Counted from the first letter of the stretch, positions 13,119 to 32,420 are shown. The stretch: DNA of 64,000 nt from Candidatus Eiseniibacteriota bacterium (GCA_965224245.1 OZ245046.1:3008001-3072000); one strand, 5' to 3'. Numbers and translations: made by a program. Notes: generated by a model from the sequence alone, not told the origin.

Positions 13119-15513
13119 GGGCGGCTCCCCGAGTCCTGGTCGCCGAGCGCCGGGCATCGGCCCCGTCGCCGTCGCCGCCGACCACCTCGAGATCCGACGT
13201 CCGCGGGGGCCGGGCCGCCAGCGTGTCCACGTCCGATCCGCTGCGCACGTCCACCGGCTCGGCGTTGGCCAGCGCCGCGTCGGGCGAGATCGCGTCACGA
13301 TCCAGCGTCTCGACCTCCGGCGGCGAGGTCCCGCCGTCGGAATCGGTCGGGTAGCGGACGCGACCGTGGAACATCCCCGTCAGGACCAGTACGAACGCCT
13401 CCCGGATCCGGGCGAGGTCGGCCAGCGTGAGACCGCACTCCTCGAGCTCGCCGGCCTCGACACGCGACTCGATGATCCGCGTCACGAGCCCGCGAATGCG
13501 CGACGGCTTGGGATCGGTCAGCACGCGGCTGGCCGCCTCCACGCCGTCGGCCAGCATCACGGTCGCGGTCTCCTTGCTTCGGGGACGTGGCCCGGGGTAA
13601 CGGAAGTCGTCGCGATCCACGTTCGGATCGGCGGCCTTGGCCTTCTGGTAGAAGAACGCCATCTCCGAGGTGCCGTGATGCTCGCGAATCGCGTCGATCA
13701 GAACCTCGGGGAGCTTGTGCTCCTTGGCGAGCTGTACGCCCTCGCGCACGTGGCTCTCGAGAATGAGACAGCTCATCGACGGCGTGAGCCGATCGTGCGG
13801 GTTTCTGGCCCTCGGGTTCATCGCGATGTTCTCGATGAAGTACTCCGGCTTCTGCACCTTGCCGATGTCGTGGTAGTAGCACATGACCCGTCCGAGCAAC
13901 GAGTTCGCGCCCACCTGCTCGCATCCGGCCTCGACGAGCGTCCCCATGACCATGCTGTGGTGGTACGTCCCCGGCGCCTCCAGCATCAGTCGCTTCAAGA
14001 GGGGTCGATTGAGATCGGAGAGCTCCAGCAGCCGGAGATCGGTGGTGACGCCGCACACGACCTCCAGGATCGGCATCAGCGTGATGGCGATCACGGTCGA
14101 GAGCGCGGCGTTCACGAGCGCCCAGCCGCTGTCGGTGACCATGTCGAGACCCAGATCCCCGCGCATCATGGCCAGGGCGGACACCGTGAACACGTACGCC
14201 ATCGACACCAGGAGGAGCGCCCGGAACACCTCGGAGCGATGACGGACCCGCTGAACCGCGTACACGCCGGTGAACCCGCCGACCAGGGAGCCGGCCACGA
14301 AGTCGAGCCCGAGCCCCGCGTTGAGCGCGAGCATCACGACCGACACGAGGGTGAAGAACACTCCCAGCTGAGCGTCGATCAGAAGGCTCACCACCATCGA
14401 CCCCGCGGCAACCGGGATCAGGAGCCACGGTAGCTGGATCGCGTTCAGCACCACCGCCGCGCTGCCGAACACCACCAGCGCCGTGATCGCCAGGAGCATC
14501 AGCTTGCCGGTGTCGGCGTACACGCGCGGGCGGTGCAGTCGGATGTAGACGATGCAGAACACCAGAATGGCGGCACTCAGGAGCACCCGGCCGGCGACGG
14601 CGATCCCGGACTTCCAGCGCGCGTCCATCCCACGCCGGGACTCGAGCTCGGCCTGGAGCGCTCCGAGCATCTGTACGACGTCGGGCGTGATGCGATGTCC
14701 ACCCTCGACGATGTTCTCGTTGGGCAGCACGCGGCGCGCGACCGGAGACACCGACGCGATCTCGGTGGCCTCGGCCCGCTCGGTCGTGACCCGGTCGTAG
14801 ACCAGATTGGGCTCCAGGAACGCGGTCACCAGCGCGCGGAAGGCGGCGCCGGCGAGATCGTCGTCCCGGAACTCCAGGCGCGCGAGCGCCTGGGCATCGC
14901 GCGCGATGCGGCTGTCGTTGTAGATCTCGCCGCGCAGGTTCACCAGTGAGTAGCGTCCCTCGGACCACAGCATGTGACGCATCGAGGTGCGGACCTTCTG
15001 CGCGGCCACCTCGTCGGCGTAGCCGGCACGGAGCACGTCGTCGATGAAGCTCCGGGCCACGCGCATGACCTCGGCGCGGCGCTCGTCGTCGAGTAGCGCG
15101 CGGCGGGAGCGGTCCGGCAGATCCACGCCGGCCTCGCCCAGGTGGATCAGCGCGGTGAGCGTGTCCGACCTCGACTCGGTCGCGATCGCGTCCGCGCGCG
15201 CGCGATAGTCGTCGAACCTGGCCAGGACGCGCGCCTTCACCGGCTCCGAGCGCTGGAAGTAGGCGGGGACGTCTTCCAGGGCGCGCTTGCGTTCGGCGGC
15301 CAGCTGGGCGTCGCTCTTGGGGACGTCGAACTCGAAGGGCGCCACGATCGTCTCGGGCGCGATGCCACCCTCGTGAAACCCCTCGAAGTGAGAGACCTCG
15401 GTCTGATCGGGAAACAGGAAGATGGCCGCGGCCAGAACCACCACCGCCAGCGCGAACCGGCGCAGCTGGAGCCAGCGCGACCGGAGCCCCTTGCCGCCGG
15501 TGCCCGACCTCAT
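13099..15513 (-). CDS. 7TM-HD phosphohydrolase (PgpH-like, HDIG domain)
   Basis: Extracytoplasmic domain, multiple TMs, APGTYHHS, YYHDIGK, HHGT, FRYPGPRP, MLADGVEAA. Start ATG 15513 overlaps the phoH stop. Confidence 0.9.
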   Translation of the reverse strand: MRSGTGGKGLRSRWLQLRRFALAVVVLAAAIFLFPDQTEVSHFEGFHEGGIAPETIVAPFEFDVPKSDAQLAAERKRALEDVPAYFQRSEPVKARVLARFDDYRARADAIATESRSDTLTALIHLGEAGVDLPDRSRRALLDDERRAEVMRVARSFIDDVLRAGYADEVAAQKVRTSMRHMLWSEGRYSLVNLRGEIYNDSRIARDAQALARLEFRDDDLAGAAFRALVTAFLEPNLVYDRVTTERAEATEIASVSPVARRVLPNENIVEGGHRITPDVVQMLGALQAELESRRGMDARWKSGIAVAGRVLLSAAILVFCIVYIRLHRPRVYADTGKLMLLAITALVVFGSAAVVLNAIQLPWLLIPVAAGSMVVSLLIDAQLGVFFTLVSVVMLALNAGLGLDFVAGSLVGGFTGVYAVQRVRHRSEVFRALLLVSMAYVFTVSALAMMRGDLGLDMVTDSGWALVNAALSTVIAITLMPILEVVCGVTTDLRLLELSDLNRPLLKRLMLEAPGTYHHSMVMGTLVEAGCEQVGANSLLGRVMCYYHDIGKVQKPEYFIENIAMNPRARNPHDRLTPSMSCLILESHVREGVQLAKEHKLPEVLIDAIREHHGTSEMAFFYQKAKAADPNVDRDDFRYPGPRPRSKETATVMLADGVEAASRVLTDPKPSRIRGLVTRIIESRVEAGELEECGLTLADLARIREAFVLVLTGMFHGRVRYPTDSDGGTSPPEVETLDRDAISPDAALANAEPVDVRSGSDVDTLAARPPRTSDLEVVGGDGDGADARRSATRTRGAARGRLGR

Positions 15514-18321: not shown

Positions 18322-18717
18322 TCAACCCGCGAAACGTCCCGGCCACCCGTGCGACCAGAACGACTTCCCGAAGACCACGCCCGAGACGACACCCACCGCA
18401 TCGGCGAGAAGGTCCCCGACCGATGCGTCCCGGCCCGGCACGTGGCTCTGTATCCATTCGTCGGTCAGGCCCACCGCGATCCCGATCGCGATCGCGATCG
18501 TCGCCGCCGTGATTCCCGTCCCCGTGCGCGGTCCGGATGCCCGCCACAGCAGAAGACCCAGGACGCCGTATGCGGTCGCATGAAGGACCTTGTCCAGCCC
18601 GTAGACGTCGGGGCCCGCCGCCGACGGCCGGGAGGAGGCGACCAGGAGGAGCGCCGCGTAGGCGATCGCCGGGCCTCGTCGGGAGAGCCACCCGGTGCGA
18701 CTCGCGCCCTCGGACAT
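18322..18717 (-). CDS. VanZ family membrane protein
   Basis: DKVLHATAYG, DEWIQSHVPGR, DLLADAVG. Confidence 0.85.
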   Translation of the reverse strand: MSEGASRTGWLSRRGPAIAYAALLLVASSRPSAAGPDVYGLDKVLHATAYGVLGLLLWRASGPRTGTGITAATIAIAIGIAVGLTDEWIQSHVPGRDASVGDLLADAVGVVSGVVFGKSFWSHGWPGRFAG

Positions 18718-19190
18718 CACGCGCGTGACGCCTCTTCCTTTCGGGCGATCGCGGCAATCGCATCCTGGGGCGTCCGGACCGACAGCAGCCGGCTTTGCAA
18801 CTCGCCATCGTAGAGCAACTTCGAAACGCGGGCGAGCACCCGGACGAAGCCGCCCCGCTCTTCCGGACCCAGAATCATGAAGACCAGGTTGACCGGGCGG
18901 CCGTCCAGCGCCTCGAATTCGATCGGCGTCGAGGGTCGGACGAGCCCCACCGCGAGCCGCTTGACCGCCGAGCACTGGGCGTGCGGAATGGCCACGCCGC
19001 CGCCGATCCCGGTGGACATGACCCGCTCACGCTTCATCACCGCCTCCAGCGCGGCCGCGGCGTCGGTGGTCAGATCCGCCTCGCGAAAGAGCTCGATGGA
19101 GTCGTGGATGAGCGCTTCTTTCGTTCGAACGCTCGCCCCCAGGGACACGCAGCGCTCGTCGATGAGGTCCACGAGCTTGAGTGTGATCAC
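18717..19190 (-). CDS. PTS EIIA domain protein (PtsN/fructose-type IIA)
   Basis: KRERVMSTGIGGGVAIPHA (phospho-His motif), FEALDGRPV; start approximate. Confidence 0.9.
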   Translation of the reverse strand: MITLKLVDLIDERCVSLGASVRTKEALIHDSIELFREADLTTDAAAALEAVMKRERVMSTGIGGGVAIPHAQCSAVKRLAVGLVRPSTPIEFEALDGRPVNLVFMILGPEERGGFVRVLARVSKLLYDGELQSRLLSVRTPQDAIAAIARKEEASRA

Positions 19191-19329
19191 GTTGCAGTCC
19201 CCGTGCCCTCGTCGAGGCACTCGGCTAAGAGTCCATCCGGTGCGACGTTCGAAATCGAAGGCAGCGAATTTAGCACGCTCACGGGAGCGGTCCAAGCCGG
19301 ATTCCGGCCCCACATACGGCTTTTGACGG

Positions 19330-20061
19330 CTAATCGGGATCGAACACGACGCGGATCGACGTCCAGGCCGCATGTGGGCGACCGCCCCGACGGGCCGGCT
19401 CGAAGCGCGCGCGCGACGCCACGGCCAGTGCCGGGGCCCGGAACTCGTCCGGGACCGCGACCGCATCGTCGGGAATCTCGGCGTCGGAGACCCGGCCGTC
19501 GGCATCGACCCTCACGCGAACCTCGACCACGACCACGCCCCGCGACCGCGAGGCCTCGGGGTAGTGGGCCGCCGGAAGGGCGACGACGACCGGGCGCGTG
19601 GCGTCGCCCTGGCCGCCCGATTCGGTGACGGACGACAGGGCCGGGCGCGCCGCGGACGATCGTGTTCCGTCGAGCCGCTCCCACGCGGCGCGGGCGGCCG
19701 GCCCTTCGGACCGCTCGGACGGACCGGTCACCTCCGGAGGGGTCTGGAGCGGGGTGTCCGCCGGCTCGGGGCGGGGCTCGGGCGGAGGCTCGGCCACGTC
19801 CGGGAGATCCGGAGGGTGTGCGAGATCATCCGCCCCGGTGGGTGCGCCATCGGCGGACGGGATGGATTCGCGGGCGATCGCGACGACGTGAATGGGATCG
19901 TGCGAGGCGAACGACACCGATGCAGCGCCGATGGCGCCCCGATCGGTGTCGCCGAGCGAGCGGACGAGGTCGGCGGGAACGAGCCAGAGCACGGCACCGT
20001 GGATCACGCAGGCCGCCGCCGTCGATGCGATCCGGTGTCGACGAGGCGGTCGCCGGCGCAT
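19330..20061 (-). CDS. TonB-like energy transducer
   Basis: N-terminal TM with His (CVIHGAVLW), Pro-rich linker, C-terminal YPEASRSRGVVVVEVRVRVDADGRV...FEPA. Confidence 0.75.
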   Translation of the reverse strand: MRRRPPRRHRIASTAAACVIHGAVLWLVPADLVRSLGDTDRGAIGAASVSFASHDPIHVVAIARESIPSADGAPTGADDLAHPPDLPDVAEPPPEPRPEPADTPLQTPPEVTGPSERSEGPAARAAWERLDGTRSSAARPALSSVTESGGQGDATRPVVVALPAAHYPEASRSRGVVVVEVRVRVDADGRVSDAEIPDDAVAVPDEFRAPALAVASRARFEPARRGGRPHAAWTSIRVVFDPD

Positions 20062-20068
20062 GATCGGG

Positions 20069-23000
20069 TCAGGCGCGGCGGTCCAACCCGTAGCGCGCGA
20101 TCTTGTTCTTGAGTCCCTTGCGACTGAGACCCAGCGCCACCGCGGCCCGGCTCTTGTTCCAGGCGTTGTCCTCGAGCGCACGCTGGACGATCTGGCGCTC
20201 GATGCCGTCGAGCTGCTCGCGGAGCGAGACTCCAGTGCGAGCCGGCGGCTCGGGGGCGAGCGTCACCTCGCTTTCCAGAAGACGCGACGGCAGCAGGTCG
20301 ATTCCGATGGTCTCGTTCTCGTCGGCGAGCGTCACCGCCCGACGCATGACCTTCTCCAGCTCGCGCACGTTTCCGGGCCAGTCGTACTCGACGAGCTTCT
20401 GCATGGCGATGCGGGAGATGCCCTTGATTGTCTTGTCCAGCTTCTGGGCGAAGACGTCCGAGAAGAACTCGGCCAGGAGCGGAATGTCGTCCTTGCGACG
20501 ACGCAGCGACGGGACGTGGATCGTGATGTCGTTCAGGCGGAAGTAGAGGTCCTTCAGGAACCGTCCCTCGGCCACCTCACGCCGGAGATCGGCGGACGTC
20601 GCGCAGACGATCCGGATGTCCAGGGGACGGTAGGCGTGGCCGCCCACGGCCCGGACCTCGCCCGAGTCGAGCAGGTGCAGGAAGCGCCGCTGGACCTCGA
20701 GCGTGGTCTTGTCGATCTCGTCGATGAACACCGTGCCGCCCTCGGCCTCCTCCAGGATGCCCTTGCGATCGTGTGTGGCGCCGGTGAACGCGCCCTTCAC
20801 GTGACCGAAGAGCTCGCTCTCGAGCACCGATTCCGACAGAGCCGCGCAGTCCACGGTCGTCAGCGCGGCGTCCGCGCGCGAGCTGCAGAGATGAAGCGCG
20901 CGCGCGATCAGCTTCTTGCCGGTCCCGGTCTCGCCCTGGAGCAGCACGCTGAGGTCGCTGTCGGCCACGCGGCTGACGAGGCCGAGGATCGAGCGCATCT
21001 CGGCGTTCTCGGTGACGATGTCCGCCAGCGCGATGGACCGGTCGATGCGATCGAGCTCCCGCAGGCCGCGACGGTTTCGAATGCTCGCTTCCTCCAGGAA
21101 CCCCGCCAGCTGCCGGGCCAGCGTCATGCAGTAGCTGACCTCGGCCTGATGGAACTCCGGATTGCCGGCGTCCAGCACGCGGTCGACGTAGAGCACGCTC
21201 CACACGCCGGCGCTCTCGCGCAGGGGTACCGCGATCGCGGACTCGACCTCACGCCCGCTGGCCAGGGGGCCCAGGCTGCGTCGCTTGTTCCCACTGGCCA
21301 TGCCCAGGAACACCGCCGGACGGTCGCTGGCCGGCCAGCCGGCCGTGAACGCCGACGGGCGGGCGAACGACCTGCCGATGGAGAGCGCCGGGATGCCGTG
21401 GGCGCCGATCACTCTCACGTCCGTGCTCGCCACGTCGAGCATGCTCGCACCGGCACACGGGATCGTGGCGGTGAGCACGCCGAGGAACTCGGAGATCTTG
21501 TCGTCGAAGGACCGATCGGACTTCAGCACGCGCTCCATCTTCTGGTGCGCGTCGAGGCTGTCCTTCGTCGACACGGCGTTCTCGACGAACGTGCACTCCA
21601 GACGCTGCTGCACCTCGCTCAGCTGATCGTCGAGCGCTCGGGCCCCGTCGAGCGTGCCCAGGAGCTCACGTGCCCGTCCGAGACGCTCGGCCGCGCGATC
21701 GACGGCGCGGTGCCGGATGTCCTCGTCGGCGATCGCCAGGAGGGTGCGGAACTCGGCCCGCGGGTGACGCAGCGCGCGGTACCCGTCGAGCGCGTCCTGG
21801 AGGTGCTGGACGCCGCTGATGCGGGTGCGGTCGTCGGTGGACTCGAGCTCCAGGCGTCCCCGGAACTCGATGACGCGGGTGAGCCAGAACGACTCGCCGG
21901 CGCGGCGCAGGATCTCGACCGCCTGGCGAGCGGCCTCATCGGCCCGCGCGTGATCTCCGGCTCCGGCGTGCAGCTCACCGATCGTCAGGAGGAGGCGCGC
22001 TTCCAGAAGCCGGTTGCTGGTGGTCCTGGCGGACTCGAGCCCGCGGGACGCCACCGTGAACGCCTCGCCCTCGCGTCCCTCCAGCGCCCTGACCCGTGCG
22101 ATGACGCGGTCCAGCTCGCCCTCGAGACGGTTGCGCCCCAGGCGCGCCGAGATGTCGGCCGCCTTGGCCGCGAAACCGGCTGCGTCCGCCGCGTTGCCGG
22201 CGCCCAGCGCCGACTCGGTGAGACCGAGATACGCGGACAGCATGCCGTAGAGGTGCTGCTGCAGGGCGCTCAGCTCGAGCGCGCTCCAGAACAGCTCGCG
22301 CGCGCGATCGTATTCCTCGCGCATCAGATGAACGTCGGCCTTGCCCGCCAGCGCGAGCGCGGAGCTCGCCGCGTCGCCGATCTCGCGGGACTTGCGGTGC
22401 GATTGCTCGAAGTCGTCGAGGGCCTCGTCGAGCTGACCCAGCATGGTGTGCAGGATGCCCTGGGTCTGGAGCACGGCCGGCAGCCCGGAGTAGTCCCCCT
22501 CGATCGACATGAGGTTCTGGGAGACCTGGCAACACTCGAGCGCGCGGCTCCAGTTGCACGCGCGGCGGTGAAGCATGCCGATGTTTCGGTAGATGCGCGC
22601 GACGTTGGACAGGCTCCCGAGATCCTTGAAGACGGTCAGGGCGTCCTGGTACATGCGCATGGCCGTGTCGACGTCGTCGCCGCGGTGGGCGATGCTGCCA
22701 CGCAGCTGGAGTGCCTGGCCCAGCTCGAGGCACGGCTCGGTGTCGACGAGGAGGTGCATGGCCGCGTCGACGTTCCGGGTCGCCTCGCCCAGCTGGCCGC
22801 GGCGGGTGCGAACCCGCGCGAGCTGAAGCTCGATCCGCACGCGCTCGATCAGCGGCGTGGCCTCGGTCATCGCGTGAGCGGCCTCGAGCGCCGTCGACTG
22901 CGCGTCGACGGCCTCTCCCAGACGAAGCTGGCAGTCGCTGATGCGACGCAGCACGGACGCGCGCAGCCGGGCGCCGTCACCGTTCAACGTCGCGAGTGCT

Positions 23001-23167
23001 TCGCGATAGTGCTGGACGGCGCCGGCGAAGTCGGCGCTCTCTGCGGAGAGGTCGCCGAGCTCGATCAGCCGCGCGCCGGTCGGTCGCGATCGGTCGGTGT
23101 CGTTGGGATCGCCGGCGGACGGCGCCTGGGCGGTCCGGTCGACGTTTCGAGCCTCATGCGTAGCCAT
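20069..23167 (-). CDS. sigma-54-dependent enhancer-binding protein with N-terminal TPR array, GAF-like region, AAA+ and Fis-type HTH
   Basis: Walker A GETGTGK, ESELFGHVKGAFTGA (intact GAFTGA), Walker B VFIDEI, WPGNVREL, HTH NKSRAAVALGLSR; roughly 550 aa of TPR-like helices at the N-terminus and no receiver domain. Confidence 0.93.
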   Translation of the reverse strand: MATHEARNVDRTAQAPSAGDPNDTDRSRPTGARLIELGDLSAESADFAGAVQHYREALATLNGDGARLRASVLRRISDCQLRLGEAVDAQSTALEAAHAMTEATPLIERVRIELQLARVRTRRGQLGEATRNVDAAMHLLVDTEPCLELGQALQLRGSIAHRGDDVDTAMRMYQDALTVFKDLGSLSNVARIYRNIGMLHRRACNWSRALECCQVSQNLMSIEGDYSGLPAVLQTQGILHTMLGQLDEALDDFEQSHRKSREIGDAASSALALAGKADVHLMREEYDRARELFWSALELSALQQHLYGMLSAYLGLTESALGAGNAADAAGFAAKAADISARLGRNRLEGELDRVIARVRALEGREGEAFTVASRGLESARTTSNRLLEARLLLTIGELHAGAGDHARADEAARQAVEILRRAGESFWLTRVIEFRGRLELESTDDRTRISGVQHLQDALDGYRALRHPRAEFRTLLAIADEDIRHRAVDRAAERLGRARELLGTLDGARALDDQLSEVQQRLECTFVENAVSTKDSLDAHQKMERVLKSDRSFDDKISEFLGVLTATIPCAGASMLDVASTDVRVIGAHGIPALSIGRSFARPSAFTAGWPASDRPAVFLGMASGNKRRSLGPLASGREVESAIAVPLRESAGVWSVLYVDRVLDAGNPEFHQAEVSYCMTLARQLAGFLEEASIRNRRGLRELDRIDRSIALADIVTENAEMRSILGLVSRVADSDLSVLLQGETGTGKKLIARALHLCSSRADAALTTVDCAALSESVLESELFGHVKGAFTGATHDRKGILEEAEGGTVFIDEIDKTTLEVQRRFLHLLDSGEVRAVGGHAYRPLDIRIVCATSADLRREVAEGRFLKDLYFRLNDITIHVPSLRRRKDDIPLLAEFFSDVFAQKLDKTIKGISRIAMQKLVEYDWPGNVRELEKVMRRAVTLADENETIGIDLLPSRLLESEVTLAPEPPARTGVSLREQLDGIERQIVQRALEDNAWNKSRAAVALGLSRKGLKNKIARYGLDRRA

Positions 23168-23213
23168 TTCGACAAGTCCCCCCGGGACGCACGAGAATCG
23201 GACGACTAGCCTT

Positions 23214-23516
23214 CTACGGGGCCGTCCAACGCAAGACGCTGAGCGTGATCAATGCGACGAGTCTCGAGAGCGACAGCGACCGCTGCCGGACCGGAGTGGA
23301 CTCGTCCTCGAGCACCGTGAACTGACCGACACGATCGAACGGCTCGTCGGGCTCTCCCTGGCAGTTGAGCTCCGGCTCGGGATCGCCGGGCCCCATGTAC
23401 GTCCCGCCGCCGTCGTTCGGCTTCACCTGCTCCCACTCGGCGTGCGCGCTGGGCACGGCAAGCAATGTCGCTCCGAGGAGCGCCATGACGAGCCCGACCT
23501 TACACACCTTCCACAT
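23214..23516 (-). CDS. small secreted peptide/protein (100 aa) with G[DE]P[DE] repeats and a hydrophobic C-terminal helix
   Basis: RBS GGAGGT before ATG 23516; Sec-type signal MWKVCKVGLVMALLGATLLAVPSAHA|E; co-oriented 46 bp upstream of the enhancer-binding protein gene. Confidence 0.75.
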   Translation of the reverse strand: MWKVCKVGLVMALLGATLLAVPSAHAEWEQVKPNDGGGTYMGPGDPEPELNCQGEPDEPFDRVGQFTVLEDESTPVRQRSLSLSRLVALITLSVLRWTAP

Positions 23517-23614
23517 CGCACCTACCTCCAGGATCGTCGCCATTCACAGCGGGCCGCCAGGTGTGGCGGGCTGGGCTGCGGCGACACGTGAGCATCACAC
23601 GTCCCCATTGCATA

Positions 23615-23629
23615 ACAAGTTCCGGGCCA
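23615..23629 (-). promoter_or_regulatory. sigma-54-like promoter of the peptide gene
   Basis: Minus strand TGGCCC-GGAAC-TTGT: correct spacing, two mismatches to TGGCAC-N5-TTGC, about 100 bp upstream of the ATG. Confidence 0.5.
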
Positions 23630-23728
23630 ACGGCGGCCGTTCCGGACGCGATCGTGGAAGTGGGAGCGAACGTGACGTTTGGCGATCTGGCTCCCACGTC
23701 GTCACCGGGACCGCGACGGGCAACCGGG

Positions 23729-23846
23729 GTGGTTACTTCCTAACCACTCTCGCAGTGTAGCCGAGAACATCATTCATTCCAAAGGTTTTGCAGATGTATC
23801 CACGGTAACCACCCCGAATCTCGCGAGGTGAGTCCAAGGTACCCAC
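23729..23846. promoter_or_regulatory. three 19-bp imperfect palindromes (putative UAS cluster)
   Basis: GTGGTTACTTCCTAACCAC (23729-23747), ATGTATCCACGGTAACCAC (23794-23812) and GTGAGTCCAAGGTACCCAC (23828-23846) in an AT-richer intergenic stretch. Confidence 0.6.
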
Positions 23847-23922
23847 CGGAACACGCGCGCCACCGGCCCCGGCTGTGTGATAAACTCCCATCCAGTCATC
23901 ACTTCCGGCAACAGCCCGCGAT

Positions 23923-25284
23923 ATGGATCGACCCAGCATGAGTCGTCAGCGCATCGATTATCGCCGCCTGCTTGCCGAGGTGATCCCGCGCGGTCCCCTG
24001 CCGGACGACGTTCGGGTGGCCGTGGATACGGCGCTGGCGTCCCCGACCGAGCCGGCGTGCGAGCGTGTCGCCCGGCTGGCCATCGACTCCCTGGTCGCGG
24101 TGGGGCGCCTCGAACGTCTCGACGACCCCGACCCGCAGCGCGCGGTCGAGCGCTACGTCGATACGGCGACCGGTGACACGATCACCGTCCAGTGGACGGT
24201 GGCCACCCGGGCCGAGCGGATCGTGCGCGTGGCGATCCCCCCCGACGCCGGACGCCACGCGCTCGATCTGGAATCGGTCCGCGAGATACTCGACATCGAT
24301 CAGCACCTGTTCCAGGCCGACGGCCGGTCCCCGAACCCGTACGGCGAGATCGTCCGGGCCGCGCTGGCGCGGGTCACTCAGCTCACGGGAGCGGACTTCG
24401 TCACGTTCGTGCCCGCAGAGCGCCTCTCACACCCGGGGACGCCGGACTTCGGCCTCCCCGAGACCCCGCCGGAACGCGTTGCGCCGCTCAGGCGACTGGC
24501 CCCCCCGGCCGAACGGTCGGCGGTATACGTCCCGGACGTCGCGTACGACGATGATCTCGTCGCGATCGCGCCGGCGGCGGACTTCGCCTCGGTCGCGTTC
24601 GCCGGGGTCGGACGCGATGCGACCTCCATCGATGGGTACCTGGAGGCGTGGAGCCGCTCGCGCGACTTCCTGGATGCCGACGGGCTGACGGCGTTCGCGC
24701 TGTTCGCCGATCGCCTCTCGGCCACGCTGCGCAAGGCCTCGGTGCTCGAGCTGCTCGTGTACCACGACGCGCTGACCGGGCTCCACAATCGCAGCTACTT
24801 CAACCAGCAGATCGCCAAGGAGGTCGCACGCGCGCGCCGTGCGGGCCAGAGCTTCGCGCTCGCGATCGCCGACATCGACGACTTCAAGGGGATCAACACC
24901 CGGTACGGGTACCACGGCGGGAACGACGTTCTCGAGCAGGTGGGGCGCCTCGTCCGCGCGTCGGTGCGGCCGTTCGACGTGGCCGCACGCTGGGGCGGCG
25001 AGGAGTTCGCCCTGGTCCTGACCGCCCCCATCGACGAGCAGGGCGCGATCGCGGTCAGCAACCGGATCCGCGAGTCGGTCAAGGCCACGTCGTTCGCCGT
25101 GACCGACCTGGAGCAGACTACCCACGTCGTGCCGATCACGATCTCGGTGGGCGTCTCGGTGTTTCCATCCGACGCGAGCGCGCCCGAGGAGCTCTGGGCC
25201 ACGGCCAACGCGGCGCTCGGACAGGCCAAGCGCCGGGGCAAGAACCGGGTCGTCGCCGCCTCCTCGCGGGGTGAGGTCGCCTGA
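23923..25284 (+). CDS. GAF-like sensor diguanylate cyclase
   Basis: HDALTGLHNR, DIDDFKGIN, RPFDVAARWGGEEF (active site plus RxxD I-site), AKRRGKNRV. Confidence 0.92.
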   Translation: MDRPSMSRQRIDYRRLLAEVIPRGPLPDDVRVAVDTALASPTEPACERVARLAIDSLVAVGRLERLDDPDPQRAVERYVDTATGDTITVQWTVATRAERIVRVAIPPDAGRHALDLESVREILDIDQHLFQADGRSPNPYGEIVRAALARVTQLTGADFVTFVPAERLSHPGTPDFGLPETPPERVAPLRRLAPPAERSAVYVPDVAYDDDLVAIAPAADFASVAFAGVGRDATSIDGYLEAWSRSRDFLDADGLTAFALFADRLSATLRKASVLELLVYHDALTGLHNRSYFNQQIAKEVARARRAGQSFALAIADIDDFKGINTRYGYHGGNDVLEQVGRLVRASVRPFDVAARWGGEEFALVLTAPIDEQGAIAVSNRIRESVKATSFAVTDLEQTTHVVPITISVGVSVFPSDASAPEELWATANAALGQAKRRGKNRVVAASSRGEVA

Positions 25285-25796: not shown

Positions 25797-27818
25797 TCAG
25801 CGGATGGTGATTCCGAGAATCCGGTCGCCGACGTCCAGGCCGTCCACCACGGCCATCCCGCCCTCGACGCGGGCGAACACGGGATATCGGCCGTCCAGCG
25901 CGGAGACCGACCGGAGCGTGATCAGGAAAGCCCCGCCCGGCCCGGCGGCGGTGGGATCCAGCGCGAGCACGCTGCCCCGGGCCGTCCGCGTGACGCTCGT
26001 GTCGTCGACGTGCGCGGGAGCGAGCGGCTCGACGCCTCCCCCGCCGATCACGACGGAATCGAGGAAGGCGCCCACGAACGGGGTACCGTCCAGATCACCC
26101 GCCGCGACCCGGGACGCGAAGCCGGCGACCGTGTGGGGCGCGTCGGCCCCCAGCAGGCGAAGCTGAACGTCGCCGTGCGTCGTGTGGATGCTGGCGACCC
26201 GCGGGAGTTGATCGGTGGCCGGCATCGTGCGCGTACGGCGTAGCCGCACGCCGTCGAGCGACACGCGATCGGGCACCTCGCACCCCAGTGGGCCGCGTGT
26301 CCCCGCGAGGTCTCGAGCATGCCACAGCCGCGCGAACGCGAGCCGGCGCACGGCGAGGCTCTCGTGATCCAGAAAACGCGGCAGCTCGCACAGCCCATCC
26401 GCCCGGTCGGCGAGCGCGCGGACGAGCGCCGCGGCGACCCGGGGCTCCAGCCGATCTCGATAGAGGGTCGCGAGAACCTCGCTCGCCGGGCCGGATCCCT
26501 GTGCGCGTCCCAACGCCTCGATCGTGGCCACGACGACACGACCGTCCGCATCCCGAAGACGATCGATCAGCGCCTCCACGAGCGCCGGGTCGCCGTCGGG
26601 GCCCTCGAACCGGAGTCGGGTCACGCAGAGGGGGAGCGCAGCGGGATCGTCGGCCGCGAGCCGCTCCACCAGATCGGCGCTCGGCGCCTCGTCCACGAGG
26701 ACCTCCGCACGAACGATCGCCGCGGAGTCCGCGCGCATCTCGCCCAGACGGGCCCGAGCGCCGGCCGACCCCGCACGCCGGAGCGCGGGGACGACCGCGG
26801 CCCGCACGACCCCCCGGGGATCGTGGGAGAGGCTCAGGAGATCGTCCAGCGGGACGACGACGCCGTCGTGCGCCGCGACGGTGGCGAGCGCCAGGCGGAC
26901 GGCGGGGGACGGGGAGTGGACGTACGGCAGCAGCGAGCCCGACGCGGCGGCGCCTGCCGCGCGCCCGGCCGCGAGGATCGCGGGAACCAGCACCGAGGGC
27001 TCCCACTCGGCCCCTCCGATACGATCGGTGAGCGCGCGCAACGCAGCGGGGTCCGGCGACGCGCCCAGCGCGCGGCACGCCTCCGCACGCACCCGGGGAT
27101 CGGGGTCGGAGAGGGCCGGGACCAGATCCGACGAGGACCCTCCGTGGGCACCGAGCGTCTCGACGGCGTGGGCCCGGACGATCGGATCGGGATCCCCGAG
27201 CCGCGCCAGCACGGCTTCACGCGACGCGTCGTCCCAGTGTCGGACGAGTCCGAGGACGGCCTCGGCGCGAACCCCCGCGTCTCGGTCCGAGAGCGCGGCC
27301 GTCAGGTGGGCGACGATCCGACTCTCGAGGCCGTCTCCGGCGGGCCCCACGTCCGGGGAGGCCGCGAGCGCGCGGAGCACGGCGGCACGCGCCGCCCCGT
27401 AGATCACAGCGGCCCCGGGTGAGCCGTCACCGAACGGGCGATCCAGGCGATCGGCCAGCACGAGCCCGATCTGGCGCCGCCGACGCGGCTCGCGCGTCCC
27501 GATGCGCTCGAGCGCGTAGGCAGCCGCCGCGGCGACCTCGGGATCTCGGTCGCCCACGAGCGCGATCATGGCATCCAGGGCGTCCTCGCCCCCCATGCGG
27601 GCGGCGGCACGGCACGCGCGCACGCGAACACCACCGGACGGATGGTCGACGAACGCGGCGAGGCCGGCATCGTGTCCCCATCCCGATCGCTCGATCCTGG
27701 CGATTCGCTCGAGGTCCGACGGCGCCTGGCAGGCACAGACCAGGGCGACGACGAGCCCGAGACCTGCTCGCGTCGCGCGGGCGAGCACCGGGGGAGCATC
27801 GCGGCACGTGCGGTCCAT
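25797..27818 (-). CDS. HEAT-repeat lipoprotein with a C-terminal degenerate cyclophilin-like domain
   Basis: LVCAC lipobox-like; repeated LxDxDxxVR HEAT motifs; C-terminal IHTTHGDVQLRL...APHTV...YPVFARVEGGMAVV. Start approximate. Confidence 0.8.
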   Translation of the reverse strand: MDRTCRDAPPVLARATRAGLGLVVALVCACQAPSDLERIARIERSGWGHDAGLAAFVDHPSGGVRVRACRAAARMGGEDALDAMIALVGDRDPEVAAAAAYALERIGTREPRRRRQIGLVLADRLDRPFGDGSPGAAVIYGAARAAVLRALAASPDVGPAGDGLESRIVAHLTAALSDRDAGVRAEAVLGLVRHWDDASREAVLARLGDPDPIVRAHAVETLGAHGGSSSDLVPALSDPDPRVRAEACRALGASPDPAALRALTDRIGGAEWEPSVLVPAILAAGRAAGAAASGSLLPYVHSPSPAVRLALATVAAHDGVVVPLDDLLSLSHDPRGVVRAAVVPALRRAGSAGARARLGEMRADSAAIVRAEVLVDEAPSADLVERLAADDPAALPLCVTRLRFEGPDGDPALVEALIDRLRDADGRVVVATIEALGRAQGSGPASEVLATLYRDRLEPRVAAALVRALADRADGLCELPRFLDHESLAVRRLAFARLWHARDLAGTRGPLGCEVPDRVSLDGVRLRRTRTMPATDQLPRVASIHTTHGDVQLRLLGADAPHTVAGFASRVAAGDLDGTPFVGAFLDSVVIGGGGVEPLAPAHVDDTSVTRTARGSVLALDPTAAGPGGAFLITLRSVSALDGRYPVFARVEGGMAVVDGLDVGDRILGITIR

Positions 27819-27871: not shown

Positions 27872-30800
27872 TCAGTTCGACTCCGCCACGCGGGCGATCT
27901 TGCCTTGCTCGACGACCCGGGCGCCGTCGGGCTTCACGATCTCCAACCGATAGAAGTAGACGCCGCTCGCCACCAGATCGCCGTCCTCGTCCCGACCATC
28001 CCACGCGATGCGGTTCAGGTCCACAACGGGATCGGGTTGCTCGAGACGGCGGATCAGGCGCCCCGACAGCGTGTAGATCTTGACCGACGCGGACCGCGCC
28101 GCGCGCGTCACCCGGTAGAACACGTCGGTGTGGCGATCGAACGGATTCGGGAAGACGAAGTACCGCTCGAGCGAGAACGCGCCGACACTCTGCACCTCGA
28201 TCGACTCGGCGCGTTCCGAGGAGCCGGTCGACCAGCGGAGCCCGATCGCGTTGCTGCCGTGGTTGAGGACCTCGGACCCCAGGCCGGCCTCGACGACCCA
28301 GCCGAAGCTGGCCGCGCCCGCGACGATCCCGTCGTCCGCGGGGAGCTTGATCGCGTCCATCGGGTCGCCGTTCAGCGTCAGGTCGACCTCGTCGGCGCCC
28401 AGCCCCACCGGGCTGTCCAGCCGGGCGCGAATGACGGCCGTGGGCTCGATGAAGGACCCGGGCACGATCTCGCGCTCGTTGCCGTCGACGACCTCGTAGA
28501 AGCGAACGTCGACCACGGACGAGAGCGTCACCTCGCGAGGGCGACCGTAGAAGTCGGACACCTCGAACACGAGCTCGTAGTCGTCGGCCCGGAGCGGGGC
28601 GTCGTAGGCGAACGTCCACTCGCGCACGAGCCCCGAGAGCGGATCGACGCCGCTCTCGCGCCGCGTCACCGTGTACTCGCTCGGATCGAGCCAGTCGACG
28701 ACTCCGCCGGCACGCTCCCCGACGCGCACGTCCGCGGAGTCGATCGGCGCCTCGTCGAACACGTGGGCCGCGAAGTGCCGGAGCCGTGTGTCGGCGTCGG
28801 GACCGACCAGCTCGCTCCCGCTGGTGACCGGGTCGGGCGCACCGAGGTCGTCCCACGGCGCATCCCCGGCGTCCTGCCAGACGCGCAGCCGCGGCGGCGC
28901 GAAGTCGATGCGCGTGGCCGGATCACCGAGCGTCACGTACGACTCGACCATGCCGTCCAGCGTGCCCTCGCCTTCGGCCGCCAGGAGGTTCTTGGTCCCC
29001 AGCATGATCTCCCCGATAGTCAGGCCCGGATACCCGGTGTATTCGTCGGCCAGATACGGACGCGAGAACCACGACGAGAACACGGCCCGTTCGATGGGTG
29101 GGTTCGACGAGAGCCACTCGAACCCGCTGCTGGCCACGCTGGCCACGCCTCCGACCTCCGGCTTGGTCAGTAGCTGCTCGGCGATGCAGTCGCCGTCGCC
29201 GTTCTGTCCTTCCAGGCGGCTTCCGAACTCCGCCAGGTGACAGGCGAAGAAGAACCACACCGGGAGCCTGGCGTAGTTCTGGAGACGGTTCACGTCCTGG
29301 GCGAACCCGTCTCCTCCGCTCACGAACTGATTGACGATCAGCACCCACTCGTGGGCGGTCACCTTCCGGTTCCCGTGGCCGGAGAACGCAACGAACAGGT
29401 GCCCGCGGTTGACCGTATCCACGAACAGGCTGTCGAGGTTGAAGTCGTTGCGGAGGTGGCGGCGCGTGCAGGCCCAGTCGCAGCCGGGAGTCACGCAGTT
29501 CTCGGGATAGCCCGGCGTCCCGAATCCGCTGGTGTCGCGACCCAGTGCCGGTAGCCGGTCGATCAGGTCGGTCAGATAGAAGCGCTCGATGCCGAAGTCG
29601 GTGAACCCGGCGGCGCGAATCGTGTCGATCGCGGCCTCGTGGGTGCGGACAAACTCGAGCTCGCTCCGCTTGCAAGTGTAGCCGTCGGTGCCGCCGGTGC
29701 CGCCCAGTCCGCCCGAGTAGAAGTCGTCGGCGAAGAAGAGCCCCCGGTTACGCCACTCCTGGCTCTCGGGTGACGCCTGGAGATCGGTCTCGTAGCGGAT
29801 GATCTTCTCGGACATGGTCTCGGCCTCGGCCAACGATCCCGCCGGGAGCCGCCCCACCATCATCGAGTTGAACGTGTCGTCGTCCTCGACCCCGTCGGGA
29901 TCCTGGATGAACCAGTTGTCCGACTGGATGAAGGGCTTGGAGATGCCCGTGTCCGACACGTTGCCGAGCACGCTGAAGCTCGGGACGTAGTTGGGCTCGG
30001 CGGTGAAGGCGCCGGTCCCCGCGATGCGCGAGACCCCGTAGTAGTCCTCCGACGCGTCGCCGACCAGGAGGAGGTACTGGGGCGCCACGCCCCCCACGGC
30101 GGGCCGCATTCGATAGGCGAACCGCACGTACTCCCGGATCGCCTCGGGCGTGAAGAGCCCGCCCGCGAACTCGTCGTAGACGTCGCTGACGTTGGCCACC
30201 TCGCACCGGTGTCCCAGGCTCTGGCGATGCTGAACCAGGTCGTCGATCCCCGGAGCGAACGCGTCGTGGACCACGACGAGGTAGTCGGCATCGAGTGCGC
30301 CCGAGACCAGATCGGAGAGCGACGACGGCGTGTCCAGCTCGAGCGCCTCGTCGTCGATCTCGGGGATCCCCGCCACGGGCTGGACGACGTAGTCGCGCCG
30401 TCCGCCGACACTGGGGTCGTCGAACACGAGCGTGTTCCCCGCGCCCGCCTCGATGTCGAACCCGAAGAGGGACACCGGCAGATCGGGGTTGGTCGTGTCC
30501 AGGAGCACGACGTCGGCCGGGTTCGTCGTCGGCACGTTGCCGATCTGAAAGCGCACGTGGCCGGTGGCGATGTCGTTCGTGAAGTCGAGGTACCCGTCGT
30601 GCATGCGATAGAGCCGGCGATAGCCGGTCTCGAACCAGTTCACGGACATGTTCATGTTGGCCGGATCGGTGAGCGTCATGACCAGCTGATGGCGTCCGCT
30701 GCCGATGAACTCCGGTCTCAGCGTGAGCCCGCCGCTGTCGTACGTCTGCCGCGTGTCGCCCAGGAACGAGCGCGGCGTGGGGTCGAGGGGCCGGCCCATG

Positions 30801-32212
30801 TCGGTCGGGCTGTCTCCGATGACGATGAACGTCTGATACGTCTTGGCGTTCTGAAACAACCCGCGGTACTCGGCGCGGAATCCGAAGAGCGTGCCCGGCT
30901 CGGGATCGTGGACGTCGAACGGGAGGCGCAGTCCGTACTCGTCGGCGTCGATGAAGACCAGGTTCCAGTAGCTCATCAGCACGTGATCGACGCGCTGGCG
31001 CAGCCGGATGAGGTCGTCGTCGCGGAACGAGTACCAGTAGTAGTGTTCGTTCTCCTCGTGGTGCGTCCAGTGCGCGAACGACGTGGGCTCGGCGTCCGGG
31101 GTGCCGCTGGGCGCGACCGACCGGCTGGGCATGACCGACCCCTCGCCGGGGGCCACCGTGAGCCAGTAGACGTTCTCCGTGCCGTAGCGCGCCTCCGCCT
31201 CGGTGAAGTTCCGCTGCGTGGACGCGTCGCGACCGTAGAACACGAGGAAATCGTCGGCATCGAACATCCCGTCGGAGTCGACGTCGGTCACGCGGATCCC
31301 GATGGGTTCCCTCAGGAACGGGTTTCCGTCCACCTCGTCCAGCTCGGCGGGGTCGTAGGACCGGGAGGTCATCTGGAGATCGGAGAGCGCCGGCGTCTCG
31401 GTCCAGCCGATCGCGCGGAGCGACGCGTGGGATACCCGGACCAGCGCGTTGTCGTCGATGCGGATCTTCACCTCGGGGGCGCTCCCGAGCCGCCCGTGCC
31501 GCCGGAGCGCCGGAGACACCACCTGCGCGCGGCGGTGACGCCAGTGCCTGGCGTCCTCGTCGTTCAGGATGCGACCCCGATAGAACCGCTCGTCACCCCC
31601 TCCGGACGGAACCGAGGTGACCGCGACGCGGCGCGTGGGATCGGGCTCGAACCGCACCTCGAACACCACGCGACGCGTCACCACGAGAGCGGGATTCGCC
31701 CCGCCTCTCGTCCGGAACGGCGTCACCCGGACGCTCGCCACCGCTTGGTTGCGGATGTTGCCCGCCTCGCCGAGCATGGCCACCGAGGCCGGGTAGAGAT
31801 CGGACCGGTCGTACGTGGCGAGATCGGGATCGAAGGACTGCACGGGGGTCGGCATGCCGGCCGGATCGTCGGCCGGCAGGAAGCGTTCGGACGGAAACGG
31901 CGTCACCCGGACGCCGTCGATCTCCGCGAGGTCGGTCTCGAGCACGCGGACGCGGGCGAGCGTGTTGGCCGGAAGCCCGATCACGGTGGTGAAGACCGGG
32001 AGTCGCGGGCGTCCCTCTTCGCGGGTCCGTGCGATGTGGCCGCTCTCGATGTCGACGTAGCCCTCGAGGGCGCCCGGGACGAGCTCGTATGCGCCCAGCT
32101 CGAACGCGACGCGCACGTGCGTCTCGTCACTCTCGATCACCGAGAAGCCCGCGGCCAGCGCGGACGTCACGGCCGCACACTGGAGCAGCAAGAACGATAT
32201 CCAACCGCGCAT
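27872..32212 (-). CDS. C25 (gingipain) family cysteine peptidase, PorU-like, with C-terminal FlgD-Ig/T9SS-type domain
   Basis: Signal peptide, propeptide region, YLLLVGDAS, VGRLP, catalytic His (FSGHGN) and Cys (FACHL), C-terminal FPNPF...IYTLSGRLIR...WDGRDEDG...SGVYFY. Confidence 0.88.
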   Translation of the reverse strand: MRGWISFLLLQCAAVTSALAAGFSVIESDETHVRVAFELGAYELVPGALEGYVDIESGHIARTREEGRPRLPVFTTVIGLPANTLARVRVLETDLAEIDGVRVTPFPSERFLPADDPAGMPTPVQSFDPDLATYDRSDLYPASVAMLGEAGNIRNQAVASVRVTPFRTRGGANPALVVTRRVVFEVRFEPDPTRRVAVTSVPSGGGDERFYRGRILNDEDARHWRHRRAQVVSPALRRHGRLGSAPEVKIRIDDNALVRVSHASLRAIGWTETPALSDLQMTSRSYDPAELDEVDGNPFLREPIGIRVTDVDSDGMFDADDFLVFYGRDASTQRNFTEAEARYGTENVYWLTVAPGEGSVMPSRSVAPSGTPDAEPTSFAHWTHHEENEHYYWYSFRDDDLIRLRQRVDHVLMSYWNLVFIDADEYGLRLPFDVHDPEPGTLFGFRAEYRGLFQNAKTYQTFIVIGDSPTDMGRPLDPTPRSFLGDTRQTYDSGGLTLRPEFIGSGRHQLVMTLTDPANMNMSVNWFETGYRRLYRMHDGYLDFTNDIATGHVRFQIGNVPTTNPADVVLLDTTNPDLPVSLFGFDIEAGAGNTLVFDDPSVGGRRDYVVQPVAGIPEIDDEALELDTPSSLSDLVSGALDADYLVVVHDAFAPGIDDLVQHRQSLGHRCEVANVSDVYDEFAGGLFTPEAIREYVRFAYRMRPAVGGVAPQYLLLVGDASEDYYGVSRIAGTGAFTAEPNYVPSFSVLGNVSDTGISKPFIQSDNWFIQDPDGVEDDDTFNSMMVGRLPAGSLAEAETMSEKIIRYETDLQASPESQEWRNRGLFFADDFYSGGLGGTGGTDGYTCKRSELEFVRTHEAAIDTIRAAGFTDFGIERFYLTDLIDRLPALGRDTSGFGTPGYPENCVTPGCDWACTRRHLRNDFNLDSLFVDTVNRGHLFVAFSGHGNRKVTAHEWVLIVNQFVSGGDGFAQDVNRLQNYARLPVWFFFACHLAEFGSRLEGQNGDGDCIAEQLLTKPEVGGVASVASSGFEWLSSNPPIERAVFSSWFSRPYLADEYTGYPGLTIGEIMLGTKNLLAAEGEGTLDGMVESYVTLGDPATRIDFAPPRLRVWQDAGDAPWDDLGAPDPVTSGSELVGPDADTRLRHFAAHVFDEAPIDSADVRVGERAGGVVDWLDPSEYTVTRRESGVDPLSGLVREWTFAYDAPLRADDYELVFEVSDFYGRPREVTLSSVVDVRFYEVVDGNEREIVPGSFIEPTAVIRARLDSPVGLGADEVDLTLNGDPMDAIKLPADDGIVAGAASFGWVVEAGLGSEVLNHGSNAIGLRWSTGSSERAESIEVQSVGAFSLERYFVFPNPFDRHTDVFYRVTRAARSASVKIYTLSGRLIRRLEQPDPVVDLNRIAWDGRDEDGDLVASGVYFYRLEIVKPDGARVVEQGKIARVAESN

Positions 32213-32420
32213 GAAAACCCCCGTTTTGTCGGTGGTCTGGTGACTCGGCACAAACGTGAGGCTTCTCGGCCGTTCGGGGCTGTTGGTGTCTACACGCCCG
32301 GCATCGGGGCAGTTCCCCCCGCGGCGCCCGGGAGCCCCGGGCCGGGACCCCCGATTGTCCGCCAACCGGCAAACTGCTACATTCTCGCGCTTTCGGTCTC
32401 TCATCGAGGATCCAGTCATC

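Follow-up and report, generated by a model that had tools for sequence, protein, structure and literature searches.

How could a transcription activator in the cytoplasm be coupled to a protein that is destined for export? This question is raised by positions 20069 to 23629 of a 64,000-nucleotide stretch of DNA from Candidatus Eiseniibacteriota bacterium (GCA_965224245.1 OZ245046.1:3008001-3072000), termed the window in the following, where a gene for a small, apparently exported protein directly precedes the gene for a sigma-54 activator (enhancer-binding protein, EBP) that harbours a long array of tetratricopeptide repeats (TPRs). Sigma-54 activators are normally switched by phosphorylation, by small ligands or by cytoplasmic partner proteins. 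Within the phylum, the small gene and the activator gene constitute a cognate, co-inherited pair in every related locus examined, a conclusion that is well supported, and the sequence features suggest that the exported small protein and the TPR-containing activator represent an undescribed signalling pair.

The small gene occupies positions 23214-23516 on the minus strand and encodes 100 amino acids starting with MWKV (stop codon, 23214-23216); an alternative upstream ATG at 23543 would yield a reading of 109 amino acids. A Shine-Dalgarno sequence, GGAGG, is located 8 nt before the ATG (23529-23525, minus strand). By inspection, the N-terminus comprises a lysine-containing n-region, a hydrophobic core and a cleavage-type site, which together form a predicted signal peptide of residues 1-26 with cleavage at AHA/EW (23439-23516, minus strand); this and all other signal peptides discussed here were assigned from inspection and hydropathy alone. 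The mature part is rich in glycine, proline, aspartate and glutamate and contains GDPE at residues 44-47 and GEPD at residues 54-57. The latter belongs to the core motif GEPDEPF (residues 54-60; 23337-23357, minus strand), the equivalent of [GA]-D-[PGN]-D in relatives. The C-terminal hydrophobic stretch reads LVALITLSVLRW and, in the family alignment described below, corresponds to a hydrophobic or amphipathic helix of residues 80-97 with a conserved tryptophan, W97 (23226-23279, minus strand). The gene ends 46 nt ahead of the EBP start codon at 23167, and both genes lie on the minus strand. The strong ribosome-binding site and Sec-type signal, the repeated G[DE]P[DE] motif with a hydrophobic C-terminus and the 46-bp spacing, all of which had been put forward in a sequence-only reading of the window, are borne out. 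The GC content at the three codon positions is 0.66/0.47/0.87 in the small open reading frame (ORF) and 0.72/0.47/0.90 in the EBP gene, at a window GC content of 69%, and since the former mirrors the latter, the small ORF looks coding. An Rfam search over 23100-24000 gave no match at E<=1. A lipoprotein identity was rejected, as the window's small protein lacks a lipobox cysteine.

The adjacent gene (20069-23167, minus strand) encodes a protein of 1032 amino acids, which by its domains is a bona fide EBP and is closest in kind to the GAF-type one-component activators. It is composed of a TPR array (residues ~45-540), a GAF-like segment (~560-700), a sigma-54 AAA+ domain (717-884), a lid and a Fis-type helix-turn-helix (HTH) domain (989-1026). 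Pfam assigns TPR_12 (E 2.3e-17) and other TPR models around residues 150-420, Sigma54_activat (PF00158) at 717-884 (E 7.5e-59), AAA_lid_14 and HTH_8 at 989-1026 (E 9.5e-10), and the Walker A and B motifs (GETGTGK, DEID) as well as GAFTGA are readable in the translation. The GAF-like segment matches PF01590 with E 0.0095 and 16.9 bits, below the gathering score of 22.4, and its best PDB sequence match, the PtsP GAF domain 3ci6, is weak (E 0.27). The sequence-only reading had taken a TPR array plus a GAF-like segment as the input of the activator; the TPR part holds in view of the Pfam and PDB profile matches, and the GAF part stays below the Pfam threshold. The domain searches show the long TPR array and the GAF-like segment as the only input modules found. 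By Pfam, the EBP has no receiver domain, and the scan of ORFs in 9987-32419 (stretch 13299-15509 outside the scan) revealed neither a kinase nor a receiver, as had been stated before. The genome contains one rpoN gene (C1:2094700-2095176) and 42 Sigma54_activat matches.

Single-sequence searches fail to place the small protein in any family: among 61 related genomes as well as among 12 candidates from an index of 5.8 billion proteins it found only itself, and tblastn detected no paralogue in its own genome. The N-terminal 700 residues of the EBP retrieve full-length relatives (8 sigma-54-domain proteins among 33 matches) and match 100 of the 206 genomes of the class at E<=1e-20. The sequence ahead of the EBP gene was then inspected at the 30 best loci of the phylum; such inspection showed a co-oriented small ORF directly upstream in all 30, namely in 29 by script and in L029 (= L052) by eye, where the ORF comprises 123 amino acids and contains GADPNDF. 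The search at phylum level covered the same 206 genomes as the one at class level, tallies over these genomes include the unpublished G053, from which no locus was used, and the genomes examined are kin, so that locus counts do not represent independent events. The 29 scripted ORFs, the start codons of which are the analyst's choices, code for about 98-125 amino acids, end 28-290 nt ahead of the EBP match, and in each case run from a signal-like N-terminus through a middle rich in G, P and D to a hydrophobic C-terminus.

In the alignment of these 29 sequences (A1), identity to the window's small protein is 15-30%, and D57 and W97 are conserved in at least 90%. None of the 29 members has a meaningful match in Pfam or NCBIfam. 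Used as a profile against 1.84 billion representatives, A1 retrieves 49 proteins of 96-165 amino acids at E<=1e-3, 17 of them at E<=1e-10, and the window's small protein scores 2.8e-7 in this search. Where family members are named at all, they are called "hypothetical protein", and one is filed under the NCBI label "Candidatus Eiseniibacteriota bacterium". The dN/dS ratio is 0.15-0.38 in eight pairs at 68-91% identity, and 0.63 and 0.68 in two pairs at 41-45% identity; the pair formed by the window and L014 yields 0.27 at a saturated dS of 3.15. The small ORF is a genuine gene, and the new small-protein family to which it belongs is small, evolves fast and escapes ordinary homology searches.

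Hydropathy provides a consistent picture of the N-terminus and a mixed one of the C-terminus. At the N-terminus, all 41 family members reach an 18-residue Kyte-Doolittle mean of 1.6 or more, and small residues occupy positions -1 and -3 of the predicted cleavage site across A1. At the C-terminus, only 5 of the 41 tails reach an 18-residue mean of 1.6, and the median uncharged run is 9 residues. Since most tails, being short and broken up by charged residues, could hardly span a membrane, the mature small protein is probably released or peripheral rather than anchored. A membrane hairpin or tail-anchor topology was rejected, given that only the said five tails resemble transmembrane segments.

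The linkage of the two genes is also seen when approached from the small protein. The A1 profile matches 70 of the 206 genomes, nearly always once per genome, and in 18 of 20 loci seeded by profile matches outside the training set, an EBP gene is located directly downstream on the same strand; the two exceptions are a false positive in a cytochrome-like protein (L080) and a locus at a contig edge (L082). In the own genome of 6.9 Mb (45,312 six-frame ORFs), A1 identifies only the ORF in the window (E 8e-12; next best, 0.67). The profile of the EBP N-terminus (A2) is found in 205 of the 206 genomes at E<=1e-30, including 121 of 121 high-quality ones. Beyond the EBP, gene content varies. TonB_C follows in the window's family and in one locus of family f11, a weakly TPR-like protein of 660-770 amino acids in families f7, f11 and f14, and fn3-like and DUF4384 proteins follow in clade B, one of two clades of activators defined below. 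In the context loci of the other, clade A, a divergent GGDEF gene is present in 14 of 14 and a downstream PtsN-like gene in 12. Only the small gene is constant beside the EBP across the loci compared, and no conserved membrane partner or relay was found near the pair across families.

A second pair in the same genome extends the linkage. The genome encodes one full-length paralogue of the EBP (C1:2409080-2412307), a TPR-GAF-like protein of 1022 amino acids, which forms a paralogous pair with its own upstream small exported GDPD protein (G000:C1:2409080-2412630, minus strand; L010:4078-7627). The small ORF has a signal-like N-terminus, the sequence GSGDPDDYD and a hydrophobic tail. A FastTree of the EBP N-termini (midpoint root) separates clade A, which consists of the window, L014-L030, L040 and L042 (20 loci), from clade B, which includes the paralogue of the own genome, L084-L094 and the loci of families f8 and f9 among the 30 best EBP loci. 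The same arrangement is found in 12 of 12 paralogue loci, i.e., the own genome and 11 loci from three other families. If the sequence-only reading holds, the genes of homologous activators should be directly preceded by a conserved small ORF that combines a signal peptide with a G[DE]P[DE]-type motif, and these loci, together with the 30 described above, uphold this expectation. In the alignment of the clade-B partners (A3), G-D-P-D is the sole invariant block (12 of 12), and a profile-profile comparison of A1 and A3 by hhalign (probability 90.6%) extends over 12 columns, which are just the G-D-P-D-type motif. A genome scan for ORFs combining a signal-like N-terminus, [GA]DPD, a hydrophobic tail within 90 residues and coding-like composition returned only the clade-B partner; the [GA]DPD pattern cannot match the window's own protein, which reads GEPD. 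Given the linkage in both clades and the tree, the pair is older than the A/B split, and each activator kept its own partner. In the clade-B partners of family f7 (L084, L089, L093 and L088), the GDPD motif is tandemly duplicated, GDPDQYANGAQGDPDQYAG; intragenic duplications have likewise been reported for RRNPP propeptides.

Two further observations concern other activators. Three shorter ORFs of 738-768 amino acids match both the TPR part of A2 and Sigma54_activat (C1:3299985-3302288, 4952206-4954419 and 3292390-3294666), and therefore the genome holds further, different TPR-EBP architectures; a regex scan revealed no GDPD-type small ORF beside them. In L054 and L057-L062 (clade B, families f8 and f9), a second EBP gene is found approximately 5 kb from the TPR-EBP gene, and fn3-like and DUF4384 genes follow a downstream sigma-54 promoter.

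The two clades differ in where sigma-54 promoters are found. Sites were defined by the pattern TGG[CT]A[CT]-N6-TGC, which in clade A takes the canonical form TGGCAYG-N5-TGC. A canonical site precedes the small ORF in 14 of the 29 scripted loci (10-132 nt before the listed start) and in L029 (one site, 53 nt ahead), compared to a single site in 85.8 kb of EBP coding sequence on the same strand as a control. All 15 promoter-positive loci belong to clade A, which amounts to 15 of its 20 loci; the remaining five comprise the window and L014, its only relative in the family, as well as L030, L040 and L042. At the position orthologous to the canonical promoter of relatives, the window features a degenerate sigma-54-like site, TGGCCCGGAACTTGTT (23629-23614, minus strand), in which GT replaces the -12 GC, and sites with two mismatches are not enriched in the window (9 found vs 12.1 expected). 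In clade B, by contrast, a sigma-54 site ahead of the small gene is found in 0 of 12 loci, and a canonical site is located some 200-250 nt past the EBP stop codon in 14 of 14 loci with sequence there (nine f8 loci, the own paralogue locus and four of four further loci). At the own paralogue locus, two canonical promoters lie downstream (L010:3844-3829 and 3306-3291), with about 500 nt devoid of an obvious ORF between them and a lipoprotein gene after them.

A candidate enhancer (upstream activating sequence) accompanies the clade-A promoter. The palindromic box TGGNTAC-N3-GTANCCA is present in three copies in the spacer between the GGDEF gene and the small gene (23829-23845, 23795-23811 and 23730-23746; no strand assigned). 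A scan of 19 clade-A loci located this 17-bp palindrome, with at most two mismatches, 200-315 nt ahead of the small ORF in 17 of them, and 28 matches in 18.3 kb of upstream regions compare with 0 in 94.9 kb of EBP coding and downstream control sequence. In L025, L027 and L042, the palindrome is present although these loci were not used in deriving the pattern. With at most one mismatch, only four sites exist in the 6.9-Mb genome, and the genome search yielded no further convincing targets. The promoter and the palindrome of clade A fit autoregulation in those lineages. The sequence-only reading had postulated a sigma-54-like promoter before the pair and an autoregulated circuit; both proposals find backing in the canonical promoters and palindromes of clade-A relatives, and both falter at the window itself, where the promoter is degenerate and unenriched.

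Which role, then, could the exported protein play? We tentatively favour, with a confidence that stops short of even, a reading in which the TPR array of the EBP senses the small protein, whole or as a fragment, as its input or modulator. It would be exported, and the protein or a released fragment would be sensed in a manner functionally analogous to propeptide/receptor pairs. That the small gene stays beside the EBP gene while the sigma-54 promoter moves, being placed before the pair in clade A and after the EBP in clade B, argues for a partner or input rather than a mere output. In clade A, the activator would drive the sigma-54 promoter before the pair via the upstream palindromic enhancer and thus establish positive feedback. 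In the genome studied here, the promoter before the pair would have decayed, which renders feedback doubtful in this organism. No conserved membrane relay was found. An exported protein would most simply gain access to a TPR array in the cytoplasm if a fragment of it re-entered the cell, as in the model of the sequence-only reading; this strict import model, a subset of the favoured reading, is rather unlikely. The same degree of doubt attaches to the boldest version, in which TPR-containing sigma-54 receptors of Candidatus Eiseniibacteriota would read self-made exported peptides, as an independent RRNPP-like autoinduction in a diderm phylum with two orthogonal pairs per genome, and processing at GDPD would release a tryptophan-containing helix or an acidic N-terminal part. 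Asp-Pro bonds can self-cleave, as in GDPH motifs.

Several points weigh against the small protein as the input of the activator. Binding, processing and import of the small protein are predictions. As the partner is exported from the cytoplasm, where the TPR array resides, an uptake or retention step must be assumed. The family members, at 87-125 amino acids, exceed the length of validated RRNPP propeptides. In the PDB, the TPR profile retrieves generic TPR proteins (LGN/Pins, kinesin light chain, AfsR and OGT among the 60 best), and the conserved GAF-like segment together with the syntenic diguanylate cyclase allows for a small-molecule input instead. As regards the feedback loop, the sigma-54 site of the window lacks the -12 GC, the nearest relative, L014, has no site, and the palindrome pattern was derived from some of the loci in which it was later counted.

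A different role is conceivable, in which the small protein is the product of the first gene of the activator's target operon, e.g., an envelope or surface effector, and the EBP senses another input, such as a small molecule or cyclic di-GMP via the GAF-like segment. In clade A the sigma-54 promoter indeed drives the small gene first, the diguanylate cyclase gene is syntenic in 14 of 14 context loci, and the further genes that the clade-B EBP controls via sigma-54 appear to code for exported lipoproteins. Yet, the clade-B small gene remains beside the EBP without a sigma-54 promoter of its own (0 of 12), the promoter being located after the EBP (14 of 14), and each EBP paralogue has a single partner, of which no unlinked copy exists. 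We consider a role as output unlikely.

Slightly lower still in probability is a periplasmic feedback modulator akin to ZraP/ZraSR or CpxP/CpxAR, which would act in the envelope on a membrane component that relays to the activator. The small, acidic, exported and co-regulated protein beside a sigma-54 activator recalls this scheme, and a TonB-family gene follows the EBP here and in four further context loci (L043, L044, L047 and L048). However, the TonB linkage is not conserved, the locus contains no histidine kinase or other conserved membrane protein across families, and no Pfam or NCBIfam model of the CpxP/ZraP type matches, for which reason membership in the CpxP/ZraP family was rejected.

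Control coupled to secretion is improbable: the TPR array would bind the precursor prior to export, and the activator would report the export flux. TPR arrays commonly bind extended or helical peptide segments, and in type III secretion TPR chaperones bind substrates before export. Apart from the motif, conservation in the family is highest in the hydrophobic segments at the two termini; Sec substrates, however, are normally exported quickly. More improbable still is that the C-terminal segment serves as a membrane anchor or a PEP-CTERM-like sorting signal of a surface protein unrelated to the activator input. The order of motif, hydrophobic helix and terminal basic residue is reminiscent of sorting signals, and in the shortest member the motif is found 4 residues ahead of the helix. 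On the other hand, the tails are transmembrane-like in only 5 of 41 members, the motif is usually 30-50 residues away from the helix, and none of the 29 members matches a PEP-CTERM or other sorting-domain model in NCBIfam or Pfam; with no model match and a motif that is not adjacent to the helix, a PEP-CTERM-like sorting signal was rejected. That GC-rich DNA merely happens to leave this reading frame open, as the single-sequence search that found only the query might suggest, has a negligible probability and is refuted by the conserved position, architecture and motif in all loci examined, by purifying selection and by the coding-like composition.

The favoured role of the small protein as a partner read by the TPR array invites a comparison with RRNPP systems (Rap/Phr, NprR/NprX, PlcR/PapR, Rgg/SHP, AimR/AimP). 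These systems likewise feature a small gene of the Sec type adjacent to the gene for a cytoplasmic TPR regulator, paralogous cognate pairs within one genome and, in part of the family, an autoregulatory promoter. In contrast, the receptor of the pair described here exerts its output via a sigma-54 AAA+ motor rather than an HTH domain or phosphatase alone, the small protein combines a conserved GDPD core with a C-terminal helix and is encoded ahead of the receptor, and the host is a diderm candidate phylum instead of Bacillota. The passages of PMC10075063 that bear on the five-criterion signature of RRNPP systems specify a Sec-secreted propeptide of 10-100 amino acids as the tool range (21-50 if validated), a receptor of 250-500 amino acids with TPRs, and genes that are adjacent within -60 to 400 bp. 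By these passages, the pair agrees in the TPRs of the EBP (TPR_12 and TPR structure matches) and in adjacency (a gap of 46 nt here, and direct neighbours at 30 of 30 and 12 of 12 loci). Export by Sec is likely, judging by the n-h-c organisation, the small residues at -1 and -3 and the hydropathy of the N-terminus. The window's small protein, with its 100 amino acids, is at the upper limit of the tool range, and the relatives (87-125 amino acids) all exceed the validated 21-50. The EBP departs from the receptor size given there, comprising 1032 amino acids (open frames of ~1010-1100 in relatives) vs 250-500 (PMC10075063). No homology to RRNPP receptors was detected, either as an RNPP-type Pfam match at E<=0.01 or among the 60 best PDB profile matches. 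The RRNPP-like nature proposed by the sequence-only reading consequently does not amount to membership, and by analogy the pair may work like an RRNPP pair without belonging to the family.

Among sigma-54 activators, NifA, NorR and FhlA share with the EBP the AAA+ domain with GAFTGA, the Fis-type HTH domain, the absence of a receiver and a GAF-like segment before the AAA+ domain. What sets the EBP apart is the TPR array of about 500 residues ahead of a GAF-like segment that is below threshold, and the obligate exported small-protein neighbour. An activator that is set by a small protein encoded beside it is also found in NifL-NifA, PspA-PspF, HrpV-HrpS and ZraP-ZraSR. Of these partners, NifL, PspA and HrpV are cytoplasmic and ZraP acts via a histidine kinase, whereas here the partner is exported and no kinase was found. 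ZraP itself is small and periplasmic, and its gene is read from a sigma-54 promoter. The PEP-CTERM/exosortase system with PrsK-PrsR-PrsT, reportedly described by Haft et al. 2006, combines sigma-54 regulation, a TPR protein and exported proteins with an acidic, proline-containing motif and a C-terminal hydrophobic segment, and to this extent resembles the pair. It differs in that here the motif is set apart from the helix, the helix is mostly not transmembrane-like and matches no PEP-CTERM model, the TPR and EBP parts form one polypeptide, and a kinase is lacking.

The literature searched, with hits judged by title and abstract, contained no paper in which a TPR array serves as EBP input or an exported protein as obligate EBP partner; the supplements of architecture surveys (e.g., PMC12316311), which may list TPR-EBPs, were outside this search. 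Should the signal prove to be the exported protein, peptide sensing in the cytoplasm, hitherto a speciality of Bacillota, would reach into a diderm phylum and into enhancer-dependent transcription. Irrespective of the signal, the analysis defines a core regulator that spans the phylum (205 of 206 genomes) and for which promoter and enhancer elements are predicted; these are testable in Escherichia coli, an organism that has sigma-54.

Upstream of the pair, the divergent gene at 23923-25284 (plus strand) encodes by Pfam a cytoplasmic diguanylate cyclase with a GGEEF motif, the N-terminal ~270 amino acids of which are uncharacterised; it is the gene noted above for its synteny with the pair, seen in all 14 clade-A context loci. 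On its side of the spacer, f7 loci harbour a near-consensus sigma-70 promoter, TTGACC-N17-TATAAT, on the opposite strand. In the window, an HU gene lies beyond the cyclase gene. Downstream, a TonB-family gene (19330-20058, minus strand) begins 7 nt past the EBP stop codon. This gene, which is not conserved across the clade, is probably part of the same operon as the EBP gene in this genome, and no terminator-like site was found in 18500-24200. The same-strand neighbours beyond the EBP are the TonB-family gene, a gene for a PTS EIIA-2 (PtsN-like) protein, VanZ, AspS and PhoH. The PtsN-like EIIA-2 gene (18717-19178, minus strand), located downstream of the EBP and TonB genes, is syntenic in 12 of 14 clade-A context loci. 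A sigma-54-like site, GGGCACGGGGACTGCA, just ahead of this gene (19193-19208, minus strand) is not conserved in the nearest relative.

Two large proteins are encoded farther away on the minus strand. The gene at 27872-32419 codes for a gingipain-type Peptidase_C25 protein of 1515 amino acids with a propeptide domain and a C-terminal FlgD_ig-like domain. The gene at 25797-27599 codes for a HEAT-repeat protein fused to a cyclophilin-type peptidyl-prolyl isomerase, and its ORF of 1019 amino acids probably starts further downstream.

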